A stretch of DNA of 11,447 nucleotides from a virus (IMGVR_UViG_2541047595_000012), one strand, 5' to 3'; counted from the stretch's first letter, positions 3,635 through 11,313 are shown. Numbers and translations are program-made. Notes: generated by a model not told the origin, from the sequence alone.

Positions 3635-3982
3635 CTAAGCATTATTGGCCTCCTGCATCAGGAGAAAGACAATCATGGCGGCGCGGAGAGGTCTGGTATC
3701 AAATATTGGGCTTACGCCTTTTGCATCCACACACCATTCAGTTAACTGGTCTAAGATAGAAATCCTGTATTTCTCAATAATCGGCCATGAAGCGCTCGGA
3801 TCATTGCAGTAGTCAGGCAAATGATTTAATGGCTCAAAAGTTGTATCAGCATTTCCGTAATACCATTTGTTGGTGTTATTCCCTGATGTTTCCGGTTTAC
3901 TTGCCCAAAGGCCTTTAAAAATTATGTCTCCTACCATTCTGTTAATTTCAAAATCACTTAACTGTGAATAATCCATTGTCAT
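3635..3982 (-). CDS. conserved phage nin-region protein of unknown function
   Basis: Track ORF 3635..4018; the likely start is the ATG at 3982 ([31 protein letters not shown]...), preceded by GAGGAA and overlapping the ninE stop in an ATGA arrangement. No recognisable catalytic motif. Confidence 0.55.
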
Positions 3983-7544: not shown

Positions 7545-7760
7545 TTAAGCGGCTTTGTGTTCCGGCGGGAACACGTCATCAAGACTGACTTTTGCGCCTA
7601 ACTTGTTTAGGCACGCAACAAGAGCACGGCATGTTTTAAGGTCTGGGAAGCGACGACCAGATTCCCAATGTCCGATAGCTCCCTGTGTGCATCCAACTGC
7701 CTTAGCAAGTGTTGTTTGAGAGATATTCAGTGACTCTCGATATTTTCGTAGGTTGCTCAT
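7545..7760 (-). CDS. cro: Cro-like repressor (HTH, 71 aa)
   Basis: The internal ATG at 7760, preceded by GGAGGG, gives MSNLRKYRESLNISQTTLAKAVGCTQGAIGHWESGRRFPD... with a helix-turn-helix whose recognition helix (TQGAIGHW) mirrors that of the divergently encoded CI (TQGGIGHW). The longer track ORF (start 7853) would run through the operator region. Confidence 0.8.
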   Translation of the reverse strand: MSNLRKYRESLNISQTTLAKAVGCTQGAIGHWESGRRFPDLKTCRALVACLNKLGAKVSLDDVFPPEHKAA

Positions 7761-7870
7761 ATGCCCTCCATAGTAAACACGAATAAAAAATACAATATGT
7801 ACTTTAAGAATACAAGTAAAAATACACATTGTGCATGGATGGTTCCAGTACAAAGCGTAATAATAAGAAC
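7761..7870. promoter_or_regulatory. OR region with divergent pR (towards cro) and pRM (towards cI) and TACA/TGTA-armed operator repeats
   Basis: Minus-strand pR candidate: -35 TTGTAT (plus 7810-7815) and -10 TATTTT (plus 7787-7792), with the operator-like 19-mer AAAGTACATATTGTATTTT (plus 7787-7805) across the spacer and -10. AATACA[A/C] repeats occur at 7789, 7809 and 7821. pRM -10 candidate TAATAA at 7858-7863 lies immediately before the cI ATG, suggesting a leaderless cI mRNA. Confidence 0.55.
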
Positions 7871-8530
7871 ATGAAAATGAAATGGTATGAACTGGCTAGA
7901 TCCAGAATGAAAGAGCTCGGCATAACTCAAGAGAAGTTAGCCGAAGAGCTAGGTATGACGCAGGGTGGGATTGGACACTGGTTGCGCGGATCTCGTCATC
8001 CATCTCTTAGTGATATTGGAGTGGTGTTTAAATACCTTGGTATTGATAACATATCATTCAACCACGACGGGACATTTTCACCTGTTGGCGAATACTCATC
8101 GGCCCCAGTTAAAAAACAATATGAGTACCCTGTTTTTTCTCATGTTCAGGCTGGGATGTTCTCTCCAGAACTCAGAACCTTTACCAAAGGCGATGCGGAG
8201 AGATTGGTAAGCACAACCAAAAAAGCCAGTGACTCTGCATTCTGGCTTGAGGTTGAAGGTAACTCAATGACCGCACCAACAGGTTCCAAGCCCAGCTTTC
8301 CTGACGGGATGTTAATTCTGGTTGACCCTGAGCAGGCTGTTGAGCCAGGCGATTTCTGTATAGCCAGACTTGGTGGTGATGAGTTTACCTTCAAGAAACT
8401 GATCAGGGATAGCGGTCAGGTGTTTCTACAGCCACTAAACCCACAATACCCAATGATCCCATGCAATGAGAGTTGTTCCGTTGTGGGGAAAGTTATCGCT
8501 AGTCAGTGGCCTGAAGAGACGTTTGGGTGA
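7871..8530 (+). CDS. cI: CI prophage repressor (HTH N-terminal domain plus LexA/S24-type autocleavage C-terminal domain)
   Basis: The C-terminal part (...[25 protein letters not shown]...[29 protein letters not shown]...[32 protein letters not shown]) matches the lambda CI C-terminal domain from memory, including the Ser/Lys dyad context. The N-terminal HTH domain is non-lambda. The start is uncertain: ATGs at 7835, 7871 and 7877 are all in frame, with no Shine-Dalgarno, consistent with a leaderless message; 7871 is chosen. Confidence 0.8.
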
Positions 8531-8629
8531 TGTGACTGCATGTAATTTATCAAAAGCGCACATACCCTATGCTAAACAACTTACTGATTAATTTACTGAA
8601 AATCATTTATTAAAAAATAAGGATTGCCA

Positions 8630-9481
8630 ATGAATTTTTCGGAAGAAAAAAATAAAGATTTCCCCAAAAAAGTACAAACTTCGCTATTTGAAGTAGATTG
8701 TAATGACGGATGCTCATTTGTAGATGTCTTGAAGACATGCGAAAATTTCAAACAAAACTATGACTTTGAGTACTCTAACGACACTCGGGCAAGGATAAAA
8801 AGTCTAATAGTTAACGATGACCAAATCTTTGCTGGGATAACACTCTATGAGCCCAAAGCTTTGGTCCCGGTAACTCCAAAAGATGGAGACCATAACGATT
8901 TGCAGGATGTAGATAATTATGATAAATGCCATATATTCTTGCTTGCAACAGAAAGCAATATTCTAACAATTTTTCAACTATCAGGAACTCATCCTTTATC
9001 TAAGTTAAAAAAAATATTTAGCCTCATGAATATCAATGTGAATATTTCTGAGAAACTCAACAAAGATGCACTTGGCAAGATAATAAAAGATGGAATACGC
9101 TCCATCAGCCTAAGTATTGAAACAACAAAAGAAGATCTAGAAGAGGCAAAAGCAACATCATTAGGTATCACTGGAAAAGCTAAAGAAGCTTTGTCAAGAT
9201 TATTTGAGAAAGAGCAAGATGATGACAACTCTTTCTATGGGCTTCTGACTCTTGACAAGAGACATAACCCAAAACTCTTAAATATTGCGAACAAAAATCC
9301 AAGCCTGATCATTGATGAATTATCGGAAGAGTTCTTCATCACAACATCAAAAGGCCAAGCGATCAAAAGCTCTGAAATCAAAACAAAAAAAGATTATTAC
9401 ACAAGAAAGTATGGCTCTACCACCATAAAAGCGGAACACGCTAAGGAAATTCTTGAGCACTTCAAGGATTTCATACTATAA
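8630..9481 (+). CDS. hypothetical soluble protein (283 aa), first gene of an AT-rich cassette in the rexA position; not recognisable as lambda RexA
   Basis: The ATG at 8630 is preceded by AAGGA (the track ORF begins on a TTG at 8624). The protein is Lys/Asp/Glu-rich with no transmembrane segment, no Walker motif and no obvious nuclease or protease signature. Codon usage and base composition are visibly AT-rich compared with the flanking phage genes. Confidence 0.7.
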   Translation: MNFSEEKNKDFPKKVQTSLFEVDCNDGCSFVDVLKTCENFKQNYDFEYSNDTRARIKSLIVNDDQIFAGITLYEPKALVPVTPKDGDHNDLQDVDNYDKCHIFLLATESNILTIFQLSGTHPLSKLKKIFSLMNINVNISEKLNKDALGKIIKDGIRSISLSIETTKEDLEEAKATSLGITGKAKEALSRLFEKEQDDDNSFYGLLTLDKRHNPKLLNIANKNPSLIIDELSEEFFITTSKGQAIKSSEIKTKKDYYTRKYGSTTIKAEHAKEILEHFKDFIL

Positions 9482-9518: not shown

Positions 9519-10010
9519 ATGAGAGGTAAAGATTGGAGTTATATTTTTTCCATAATCTTTTTTATCTGCCTTTCTCTTGTATTAACTTATTATTTACATG
9601 ATAAGGTTAGATATAACAAAGAGTTGCTTGGACTTGTGGCAAATATATTTTCAATATTAACAGGGTTTCTGTTACTTGTTATAACCACAAGTGGAGACGT
9701 AGCATCGTTTACAGAAGGTAAATCAAGATCAGAAAAGTATGCAACTAAGAGGAAATTCGAAATTCGGTTTTCTCGTTACATGATGCTTTTTTACCTCTAT
9801 CTTACAGTCTTGTGCTTAATATTCTTCTACTACATGCTGCTGCCACCAGGAGACACCAGTAAAATCTTAGCAAGCAAGCCGCCTGTGACCAACCTGAGTC
9901 TGGCACTTGAGTTTATTATATGCTGGCTAAGCATAATTTCATTTGGATGCTCTTTTTTCATACCAATAAAGCTGAAACAGATTTATAACGAAAAACTCAA
10001 GCAACAATAA
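9519..10010 (+). CDS. hypothetical integral membrane protein (163 aa, about four transmembrane helices), second gene of the cassette in the rexB position
   Basis: The ATG at 9519 is preceded by a strong GGGGGAGG Shine-Dalgarno. Four hydrophobic stretches are visible (about aa 8-26, 36-57, 87-108 and 126-150). The size and topology resemble RexB-type small membrane effectors, but the sequence is not recognisably RexB. Confidence 0.75.
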   Translation: MRGKDWSYIFSIIFFICLSLVLTYYLHDKVRYNKELLGLVANIFSILTGFLLLVITTSGDVASFTEGKSRSEKYATKRKFEIRFSRYMMLFYLYLTVLCLIFFYYMLLPPGDTSKILASKPPVTNLSLALEFIICWLSIISFGCSFFIPIKLKQIYNEKLKQQ

Positions 10011-10036
10011 CCCGGCCTCAGCGCCGGGTTTTCTTT
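10009..10036 (+). terminator. rho-independent terminator (AACCCGGC-CTCAGC-GCCGGGTT followed by TTCTTTG); timm-like end of the cI-cassette transcript
   Basis: Perfect 8-bp GC-rich stem directly after the stop of the membrane-protein gene, followed by a T-rich tract. Confidence 0.7.
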
Positions 10037-10210
10037 GCCTCACGATCGCCCCACCTAAAAACACATAACCAATTGTATTTATTGAAAAATAAATAGATAC
10101 AACCCACTAAACCACGCAATTCTGATCTCTCCTTACATCGCCGAGGCAATACATCCACGCTAAAAAACAACACTATTAAATACAAAGCGTTATAAAAAAC
10201 CACGCCAACT

Positions 10211-10260
10211 TACAACAAATTGTATTGATCTTGTAAAGTACATATCGTACTATTTAACCG
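10211..10260 (+). promoter_or_regulatory. OL/pL-like region: -35 TTGATC (10225-10230), -10 TACTAT (10249-10254), overlapping operator-like motifs
   Basis: The 15-mer AAAGTACATATCGTA (10235-10249) is nearly identical to the motif in the pR spacer (AAAGTACATATTGTA). TACAACAAATTGTA (10211-10224) is a TACA-N6-TGTA inverted repeat. Orientation and distance to nutL and N fit a pL promoter. Confidence 0.5.
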
Positions 10261-10298: not shown

Positions 10299-10344
10299 GG
10301 CTCTTTAAACAACGTCGACTCTCGACTACGTGGCTGAAAAGCCA
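10299..10344 (+). promoter_or_regulatory. nutL-like site: boxA (GGCTCTTTAAACAA) and boxB hairpin (TGGC-TGAAAA-GCCA)
   Basis: The boxA-like element at 10299-10312 resembles the E. coli and lambda boxA (GCTCTTTAACAA). A GAAAA-loop hairpin follows at 10331-10344. It lies between the pL candidate and N. Confidence 0.5.
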
Positions 10345-10442
10345 GATCACCCAACCACATAAGCTGTGGGATGCAATGCCGAAGCAACCGTCTCAGGAGG
10401 AGCTTCGAGATTGCATCGCCAAAGTTTATTCGGGAGGAATCC

Positions 10443-10715
10443 ATGTCCAGAAAAACAGAATTTAAAGGCACCGCAGCTTCTCGCCGTAGAGCTCGTCGCG
10501 CAAATCTGCAAAGTCAGGAGGCGATCAGCTCCGACAAGCTACACAGGCCAACCCCTTCACGAGTGGTCTTGCAATGCAAGCGCAAACCAGCAATGAGAGC
10601 AGAAGTGATAACTCTGACAACGTTGACCAGAAAATATGAAGGTTCAACTTGTCTTCCGAACGTAGCTCTTTACGCGGCAGGCTACCGGAAATCAAAACAA
10701 CTGACGGCGAGATGA
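10443..10715 (+). CDS. N: N-type antitermination protein (P22-like N with arginine-rich RNA-binding motif)
   Basis: The ATG at 10443 is preceded by GGGAGGAA, giving MSRKTEFKGTAASRRRARRANLQSQEA... with an arginine-rich motif near the N-terminus. The C-terminus ...VALYAAGYRKSKQLTAR resembles the P22 gene 24 (N) product as I recall it. The track ORF start at 10371 is upstream of the Shine-Dalgarno and is unlikely. Confidence 0.7.
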   Translation: MSRKTEFKGTAASRRRARRANLQSQEAISSDKLHRPTPSRVVLQCKRKPAMRAEVITLTTLTRKYEGSTCLPNVALYAAGYRKSKQLTAR

Positions 10716-10731
10716 TAAATTCATTTGCTAA

Positions 10732-11313
10732 TTACTTGTTTTTGCCATGCTTATCCTGAGCGATAAGTTCATCCATAAGGCTGTCTGCCTTCCCGGCAAA
10801 CCGAATGTAGCACTCATGTCTATAGCTTTCAGGAATAACAAAACGGTCGGTATCAGGATATCCAACAGCAGGAGGCCTTCGAACGAGGAGTCCTTTTTTG
10901 AGCAATGAAATTGATTCATGAACTCCCTTTTCCGTTTGTAGCTGGTTATTAGCGGCTACAGCGAATGCCAAATACGCTCTTTCTCCAAGAGTTAACGAAT
11001 CAAACAAATCTTGCACATATTTTTCTTCTTTAGATTTGCGCTTCTGAGCAGCGGATACCTCAATTCTTTCAGTCACAGCGTGATAAGCGGAATTAACAAC
11101 GCCGTTAAGCACATAGCTAACGCAAAACAACAGGATGTAATACATCCAGTAATGAGGAAGGATTTCTGGATTATGCAGGTTTATCCATTCTTTTACGCTT
11201 ACCGGCATAACAATAATCAATATGATCAGGATGATTAGCATATGAATCAACTGTTTAAGTGTCATTCCTTGCAGGAAAAAATGCATTAGTTCCTGCCACC
11301 ATGAGTTGTTCAT
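10732..11313 (-). CDS. sieB: superinfection exclusion protein B (SieB-like), membrane-anchored
   Basis: 193-aa ORF with an N-terminal hydrophobic segment (LIHMLIILIILIIVMPV... and YWMYYILLFCVSYVL), adjacent to N. Its size and location match lambda/P22 SieB; recognition is from memory and only moderately secure. Confidence 0.6.
   Translation of the reverse strand: MNNSWWQELMHFFLQGMTLKQLIHMLIILIILIIVMPVSVKEWINLHNPEILPHYWMYYILLFCVSYVLNGVVNSAYHAVTERIEVSAAQKRKSKEEKYVQDLFDSLTLGERAYLAFAVAANNQLQTEKGVHESISLLKKGLLVRRPPAVGYPDTDRFVIPESYRHECYIRFAGKADSLMDELIAQDKHGKNK

Follow-up and report, generated by a model that had tools for sequence, protein, structure and literature searches.

A 15-mer common to the pR and pL regions of an Escherichia phage very probably marks the OR1 and OL1 operators of the VT2-Sakai immunity type

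The phage DNA analyzed here carries a 15-mer twice, once at the predicted pR promoter and once at the predicted pL promoter, and we conclude that the two copies are very probably the cores of OR1 and OL1, which would be the strongest of six partially symmetric 17-bp operators of the VT2-Sakai (Sp5) immunity type. In the window (by which we mean the whole 11,447-bp stretch of viral DNA) and in its relatives, we observe directly the sites and their symmetry, where they lie with respect to conserved promoter-like hexamers, how they are conserved, and that they occur together with one repressor family. For the VT2-Sakai immunity type, these six operators had already been predicted from sequence. 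The present analysis adds comparative support for them, corrected site boundaries, the reassignment of an element at 7809 to the -35 hexamer of pR, and a conserved asymmetry in the spacing of the sites.

Escherichia phage 2G7b and PhiR11_1 match the window at 100% identity. The genes and other elements that surround the two control regions are these:

cro, 7545-7760, minus strand: 71 aa; Pfam HTH_3, E=4e-12; annotated as Cro in PhiR11_1 and VT2-Sakai; ATG at 7760, in agreement with PhiR11_1; recognition helix TQGAIGHW
cI, 7871-8530, plus strand: 219 aa from the first ATG, with a second ATG at 7877; recognition helix TQGGIGHW
Two unannotated ORFs, 8624-9481 (285 aa) and 9519-10010 (163 aa, looks hydrophobic), plus strand
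Terminator-like hairpin, 10009-10030
N antiterminator, 10371-10715, plus strand: first gene of the pL transcript; Pfam N_peptide, E=2e-32
sieB, 10732-11313, minus strand: gene context

The CI protein combines an HTH_3 N-terminal domain (Pfam, E=2e-10) with a lambda-like Peptidase_S24 C-terminal domain (E=1e-28). In its first 69 residues, the N-terminal domain is 100% identical to that of VT2-Sakai CI (AP000422), and the block formed by cro, OR and the N-terminal part of cI shows about 97% identity to Sakai-type (PST1) Stx2a phages and to phages 2851, 1717 and YYZ-2008. Judged by sequence identity, this module is of the VT2-Sakai (Sp5) immunity type. At the nucleotide level, the 3' part of cI (8120-8530) shares about 95% identity with its lambda counterpart; the gene is chimeric, a lambda-like hinge and C-terminal domain being joined to an unrelated DNA-binding domain of the VT2-Sakai type. 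A search of the PDB with the latter returned no close structure, the best match being lambda repressor (E=3e-4). Between cI and the terminator-like hairpin, the two unannotated ORFs occupy the slot that holds rexA/rexB in lambda, and the cargo found there differs among phages of the same immunity. Neither ORF had a sequence match in Pfam, PADLOC or the PDB; they could be an uncharacterized exclusion or defense pair expressed in the lysogen.

An initial annotation of this DNA had drawn attention to the 15-mer, and both copies lie where it placed them: the minus strand reads AAAGTACATATTGTA at 7791-7805, and the plus strand reads AAAGTACATATCGTA at 10235-10249. They are the sole matches in the window at one mismatch or fewer; a further copy with 3 mismatches is found at 7819-7833 (plus strand), and matches at up to 3 mismatches number 3, as against 0.65 expected. 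The cro-cI intergenic region and the DNA upstream of N have at most 12 bp in exact agreement (TAAAGTACATAT). Of 2000 mononucleotide shuffles, 11 gave an exact match of this length or longer; with one mismatch allowed, the common stretch reaches 16 bp. The two copies were said to hold equivalent positions at pR and pL, and this equivalence is exact, as each starts exactly 4 nt past a -35-like hexamer and ends 2 nt inside a -10-like hexamer. Both copies center on a TAC-N5-GTA dyad (at 7796 and 10244). The promoters to which these hexamers would belong are as follows:

Predicted pR, 7787-7815, minus strand: -35 TTGTAT (7815-7810), 17-nt spacer, -10 TATTTT (7792-7787); start near 7780
Predicted pRM, 7836-7864, plus strand: -35 TGGATG (7836-7841), 17-nt spacer, -10 AATAAT (7859-7864); start near 7871
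Predicted pL, 10225-10253, plus strand: -35 TTGATC (10225-10230), 17-nt spacer, -10 TACTAT (10248-10253); start near 10260

The match of the hexamers to the sigma-70 consensus is weak (7/12 for pR, 8/12 for pL), and a generic promoter scan of the window called none of pR, pL and pRM, with pL falling below its threshold. The promoter assignments therefore rest on the conservation of the hexamers and on the annotation of VT2-Sakai in GenBank AP000422. The hexamers were derived from the sequence prior to any comparison with that record, in which, at an offset of +4870, the “putative major rightward promoter” equals window 7787-7815 and the “putative maintenance promoter for cI” equals 7836-7864; its “putative major leftward promoter” has the same span relative to OL1 as our predicted pL. 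The pRM start near 7871 would coincide with the first ATG of cI, and the cI mRNA is probably leaderless.

Both 15-mers fall within members of a larger set of 17-bp sites, for which we follow the lambda naming convention:

OR1 (cro-proximal operator), 7788-7804: minus-strand sequence AAGTACATATTGTATTT; exact match to a published Sakai putative operator; holds the pR 15-mer
OR2, 7820-7836: minus-strand sequence ATGCACAATGTGTATTT; exact match to a published site; in AP000422; adjoins the predicted pRM -35
OR3, 7846-7862: minus-strand sequence TATTACGCTTTGTACTG; 1 mismatch to a published site; in AP000422; overlaps the predicted pRM spacer and -10
OL1 (N-proximal operator), 10236-10252: plus-strand sequence AAGTACATATCGTACTA; exact match to a published site; holds the pL 15-mer
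OL2, 10211-10227: plus-strand sequence TACAACAAATTGTATTG; 1 mismatch to a published site; 3-nt overlap with the pL -35
OL3, 10178-10194: plus-strand sequence AAATACAAAGCGTTATA; 1 mismatch to a published site

Three of these 17-mers are contained in the 110-bp cro-cI intergenic region, and a second cluster of the same site type, OL1-3 at 10178-10252, lies upstream of N. The register-conserved hexamers, weak and uncalled as they are, overlap OR1, OL1, OL2 and OR3. The consensus of the sites is a 17-bp dyad with an odd center, aAnTACAa-N-tTGTAnTt (TAC-N5-GTA). A5/C6 and G12/T13 are invariant in all six sites of the window, and the 12 half-sites conform to one consensus with partial two-fold symmetry (A5 and C6 in 12/12 each, A2 in 11/12, T4 and A7 in 9/12 each); the weakest half is the left half of OL2, which reads AAC instead of TAC. 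The six operators are the six best PWM matches in the window, OR1 (20.9, the top score of the window) and OL1 (19.2) being the highest among them. When five sites were used to find the sixth among 11,426 positions, the omitted site ranked first for OR1, OR3, OL1, OL2 and OL3 and third for OR2. Center-to-center spacings are 32 and 26 bp at OR, and 25 bp (OL1-OL2) and 33 bp (OL2-OL3) at OL. The outermost sites, OR3 and OL3, resemble each other as OR1 and OL1 do, and have as their core a common 10-mer, TACAAAGCGT, in the same orientation (7849-7858 and 10181-10190).

The initial annotation had taken the 15-mer itself as the operator. Its placing of the operator there is supported, but the functional unit appears to be the 17-bp dyad within which the 15-mer lies. 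It had, moreover, missed OR3, OL2 and OL3, there being three sites in each region. A repeat search of the two control regions by exact-seed extension recovered no operator site, its only results being a direct repeat unrelated to them and one inverted pair near OL; the operators escape such a search because they are too degenerate.

Several other elements were observed near OL. The best non-operator PWM match in the window (13.7) is CATAACCAATTGTATTT at 10064-10080, approximately 114 bp upstream of OL3. By eye, it resembles the left arm of an AT-rich inverted repeat (to about 10098) just downstream of the terminator-like hairpin; it is absent from the AP000422 annotation, kept in most relatives and deleted in the most divergent group. 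As a candidate seventh operator-like site, it could add to looping between OL and OR. A direct repeat, CCACGCTAAAAAACAACA and CCACGCCAACTTACAACA (10155-10172 and 10200-10217; 78% identity, 45 bp apart), flanks OL3. Nearer to N, the hairpin GTCGACTCTCGAC (10314-10326) was called terminator-like for the minus strand; an offset of +5031 at pL puts it inside the “putative N-utilization leftward” (nutL) feature of AP000422, and instead of a terminator it may be a stem-loop of the boxB type.

The sites are not new. Six putative 17-bp operators of PST1 appear, with reference to Fattah et al. 2000, in Table S5 (Additional file 6) of Yin et al. 2015 (PMC4587872), which states that they are the “same as operator sequences in E. 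coli O157:H7 Sakai”. All six published 17-mers map to the window with 0-1 mismatch, and two of them, AAGTACATATTGTATTT (OR1) and TAGTACGATATGTACTT (OL1, opposite strand), contain the two 15-mers. In the same table (PMC4587872), the labels run opposite to the lambda convention, with OL1-3 for the cro-proximal set and OR1-3 for the N-proximal set. The site that the table calls “OL3” adjoins cro, and names should be transferred by checking positions, not labels. GenBank AP000422 (VT2-Sakai) likewise carries putative operators, three each at OR and OL, along with pR, pRM and pL, with OR1 at an offset of +4870, and “putative operator” and promoter features are also present in AP005153, the Stx1 phage of Morioka V526. 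The window agrees with both of these phages in the order and spacing of the six 17-mers (0-1 mismatch) and in the predicted pR, pRM and pL. From the VT2-Sakai sites it departs by single bases at OR3 position 8, OL2 position 3 and OL3 position 15 (plus-strand numbering); its cargo between cI and OL consists of the two unannotated ORFs rather than Sakai H0093/H0092; and, unlike VT2-Sakai, it is not from an Stx phage by its record names. The VT2-Sakai sites have later been called “the six operator sites” (PMC9803871; PMC10742460). The sole binding assay that we found for them is an EMSA with the heterologous lambda CI, which gave an apparent Kd of 3.7-6.4 uM and is uninformative on cognate recognition (PMC10742460). 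Thus, the operator hypothesis that had been offered as a concrete one for this immunity type had already been published and annotated for VT2-Sakai. Its substance, a repressor operator of the OR1/OL1 type, is nonetheless supported by three independent lines: that annotation, conservation within the family and distant repressor relatives.

Conservation among close relatives separates the sites from their surroundings. A scan of viral contigs (IMG/VR) yielded 80 loci with CI N-terminal domains 97-100% identical to that of the window, from which we assembled 28 distinct OR variants (27 from the loci, plus the window) and 38 OL variants. Variable columns make up 8/51 within the sites and 30/62 outside them at OR (Fisher p=3e-4), and 14/51 and 52/84, respectively, at OL (p=1.6e-4); the loci are close relatives shaped by recombination, and these statistics count columns, not independent events. 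Changes within the OR sites are confined to positions 1, 3, 7-9 and 17, leaving the TAC and GTA arms constant. OR2 varies at its central positions 8-9 only among the 28 OR variants, and OL3 at positions 11 and 15 only among the 38 OL variants; OL2 is the most variable site. Even in the most divergent OL group, in which flanks and spacers are largely rewritten, the three sites are retained. Absence of the motif from prophages that share the repressor had been named as a refutation of the operator reading, and the motif withstands this check: 80/80 loci have OR1, 72 of the 72 that reach that far have OL1, and the site type recurs in the distant relatives described below. At its first one or two bases, the 15-mer differs from one relative to another (AAAG, GAAG, TGAG), which shows that the conserved unit starts inside the 15-mer.

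The same alignment helps to resolve the promoter elements. Across the 28 OR variants, the TTG of the pR -35 is invariant while other bases of the hexamer change (TTGCAT or TTGTGT), and the -10 reads TATTTT or TATTAT in the same register. The 4 nt that separate the -35 from site 1 are hypervariable at both pR (7806-7809) and pL (10231-10234), with at least 10 different tetranucleotides at 7806-7809 among near-identical relatives, whereas the -35 TTG and the operator are fixed. Three AATACA[A/C] words had been proposed as half-sites in this region, and all three are present, at 7789, 7809 and 7821. The word at 7789 is the other half of OR1 and that at 7821 is the left half of OR2; the one at 7809 is partnerless and coincides with the pR -35. 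We rejected 7809 as a fourth OR half-site, given that its partner half is absent, that it has no PWM match and that its AC is broken in relatives. There, the AATACAA word becomes ATGCAA or ACACAA, with the TTG of the -35 kept. Since such changes would break the AC that is invariant within OR sites while the TTG stays, the word is better read as a promoter element.

More distant repressors extend the comparison. A protein homology search with the CI N-terminal domain returned near-identical fragments only, but tblastn found repressors 52-57% identical in this domain in Salmonella phages L, ST64T and SPN9CC and in Klebsiella, Erwinia and Vibrio phages. The cro-cI intergenic regions of these distant relatives are unalignable to that of the window, yet each has high-scoring TAC-N5-GTA 17-mers, for example TAATACATTTCGTACTA in phage L, TAATACATAACGTACTA in the Klebsiella phage and TATTACATTTCGTAATT in the Vibrio phage. 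Five phages were scored (phage L, SPN9CC, Erwinia, Klebsiella and Vibrio): the sum of the top three non-overlapping PWM scores in the intergenic region exceeded that of 1000 of 1000 shuffles in four of them and of 999 of 1000 in the fifth. Phage mEp515 (45% N-terminal identity) was left out, as its annotation shows no divergent cro adjacent to cI and no OR-type cluster was obtained from it. The recognition helices are TQGGIGHW in window CI, TQGAIGHW in window Cro and in C2 of phage L, and TQGGLGHW in the Klebsiella phage. Phage L immC (X94331) and the Klebsiella, Erwinia, Vibrio and SPN9CC-type phages thus resemble the window in N-terminal family (52-57%), in a helix of the form TQGxIGHW or near it and in the TAC-N5-GTA dyad; they differ in immunity specificity and in the flanking and central bases of their sites. 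No operator annotation was found in the records of these phages. Phage L and the Erwinia and Klebsiella phages are alike in spacing as well (32-34 and 25-26 bp at OR):

OR site spacings (bp): window 32/26; phage L 34/26; Erwinia 32/26; Klebsiella 33/25

At OL, the Klebsiella phage and the window both have spacings of 33 and 25 bp. Across distant members of the repressor family, the asymmetry is 32-34 and then 25-26 bp at OR and, read from cI, 33 and then 25 bp at OL; the short, lambda-like spacing falls on OR2-OR3 and on OL1-OL2. The site clusters in the comparison records span 545-621 (L085), 2919-2993 (L087), and 2917-2991 and 3726-3800 (L088).

The arrangement as a whole resembles that of lambda. 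Both phages have three partially symmetric 17-bp sites between divergent cI and cro genes and three more at pL upstream of N; in lambda, and in the window with respect to its predicted promoters, site 1 lies over the -10 and spacer of the lytic promoter, site 2 at about -43 of pRM and site 3 over pRM; and the leaderless cI mRNA of lambda probably has its counterpart in the window, where the CI hinge and C-terminal domain are about 95% identical in nucleotide sequence. The N-terminal domains, in contrast, are barely similar, and the half-site aAnTACAa is unrelated to TATCACCG of lambda. Lambda OR sites are spaced 24 and 23 bp from center to center, as opposed to 32 and 26 bp in the window, where the predicted pR -35 lies between OR1 and OR2 (32 bp apart), outside any 17-mer, and not under OR2. 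The operators of phage 434, which has a small HTH repressor, are 14-bp sites of the form ACAA-N6-TTGT. The window sites share the ACAA and TTGT words with them, but not the architecture: the words are 1 bp apart instead of 6, the site is 17 bp with an odd center, and the recognition helix is another one. Readings of the window sites as 434 operators, LexA boxes or CII sites were rejected on spacing and sequence.

By analogy with lambda, and in keeping with the geometry of sites and promoters, we infer binding by the cognate CI and Cro, the relative affinities of the sites, the points at which transcription starts, and cooperativity. CI dimers at OR1 and OL1, lying across the spacer and -10 of pR and pL, would block RNA polymerase and silence cro and N. 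CI at OR2, centered about 43 bp upstream of the cI start and adjoining the pRM -35, would be placed to contact RNA polymerase and activate pRM; relative to the predicted start at 7871, the center of OR2 is at about -43 and that of OR3 at about -17. OR3, over the pRM spacer and -10, would be placed for autorepression by CI and shut-off by Cro. Cro should read the same sites as CI, because the two recognition helices are almost identical (TQGAIGHW and TQGGIGHW). Further, the lambda-type C-terminal domain of CI would be expected to confer RecA-stimulated autocleavage and lambda-like oligomerization. The conserved asymmetric spacing might also mean that pairwise cooperativity is wired differently from that of lambda, a proposition that we regard as speculative and rather unlikely; the C-terminal domain of CI, which mediates cooperativity, is of the lambda type.

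Could the 15-mer be no repressor site at all, but a promoter core common to pR and pL through shared ancestry or through a requirement of RNA polymerase or the spacer? The motif does stand in the same register between the hexamers of both promoters, with its last two bases in the -10. However, the dyad recurs four more times outside the pR and pL spacers (at OR2, at OR3 over pRM, at OL2 and at OL3), and we know of no requirement of sigma-70 spacers for a TAC-N5-GTA dyad. The dyad is fixed while the 4 nt adjoining the -35 are hypervariable, and it follows the repressor family into phages with different promoter hexamers. We therefore consider a promoter core very unlikely. A fortuitous likeness of two AT-rich intergenic regions is less credible still. 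Both regions are indeed full of TACA/TGTA words, and common words of 8-10 bp are frequent in shuffles, but an exact 12-mer is rare in them and the matches at up to 3 mismatches exceed expectation, as given above. Together with the leave-one-out PWM ranks, the conservation of columns and the presence of the sites in every related locus, these results refute chance, to which we assign a negligible probability.

It is also conceivable that the sites are genuine protein-binding sites whose main ligand is not CI but Cro alone, some other phage regulator or a host factor, and their AT-rich sequences could attract nucleoid proteins. Yet in five genera the sites are accompanied by CI/Cro pairs from a single HTH family, and CI and Cro have the recognition helix TQG[G/A]IGHW in common. 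Three sites around the divergent cI and cro genes, with three more ahead of N, make up the layout of classical CI/Cro systems. The LexA box is CTGT-N8-ACAG and the CII site is TTGC-N6-TTGC; compared by eye, the six sites fit neither. A different main ligand is accordingly highly improbable in our estimation, and operators for CI and Cro remain the reading that we favor. What weighs against this reading is the weak consensus match of the promoters, the position of the predicted pR -35 outside any 17-mer and the poor left half of OL2.

This assignment allows the region to be annotated with confidence by transfer from VT2-Sakai. Its new value is modest and comparative: the repressor family is accompanied by the TAC-N5-GTA site type and its spacing in phages of Escherichia, Salmonella, Klebsiella and Erwinia, and a Vibrio phage has the site type as well. 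These results give phylogenetic-footprint support to sites so far accepted on inspection alone, and they identify the invariant A5/C6 and G12/T13 as the positions to mutate.

The Stx2a phage of E. coli O157:H7 Sakai has the immunity module described here, as do many other Stx phages; in these phages, the behavior of repressor and operators sets the readiness of the prophage for induction and the amount of toxin. If cooperativity is indeed wired differently from that of lambda, the short OR2-OR3 spacing would favor co-occupancy of OR3, strong autorepression of pRM and a low level of repressor. Such a low level would fit the “hair-trigger” induction that has been discussed for Stx phages (PMC5977221).
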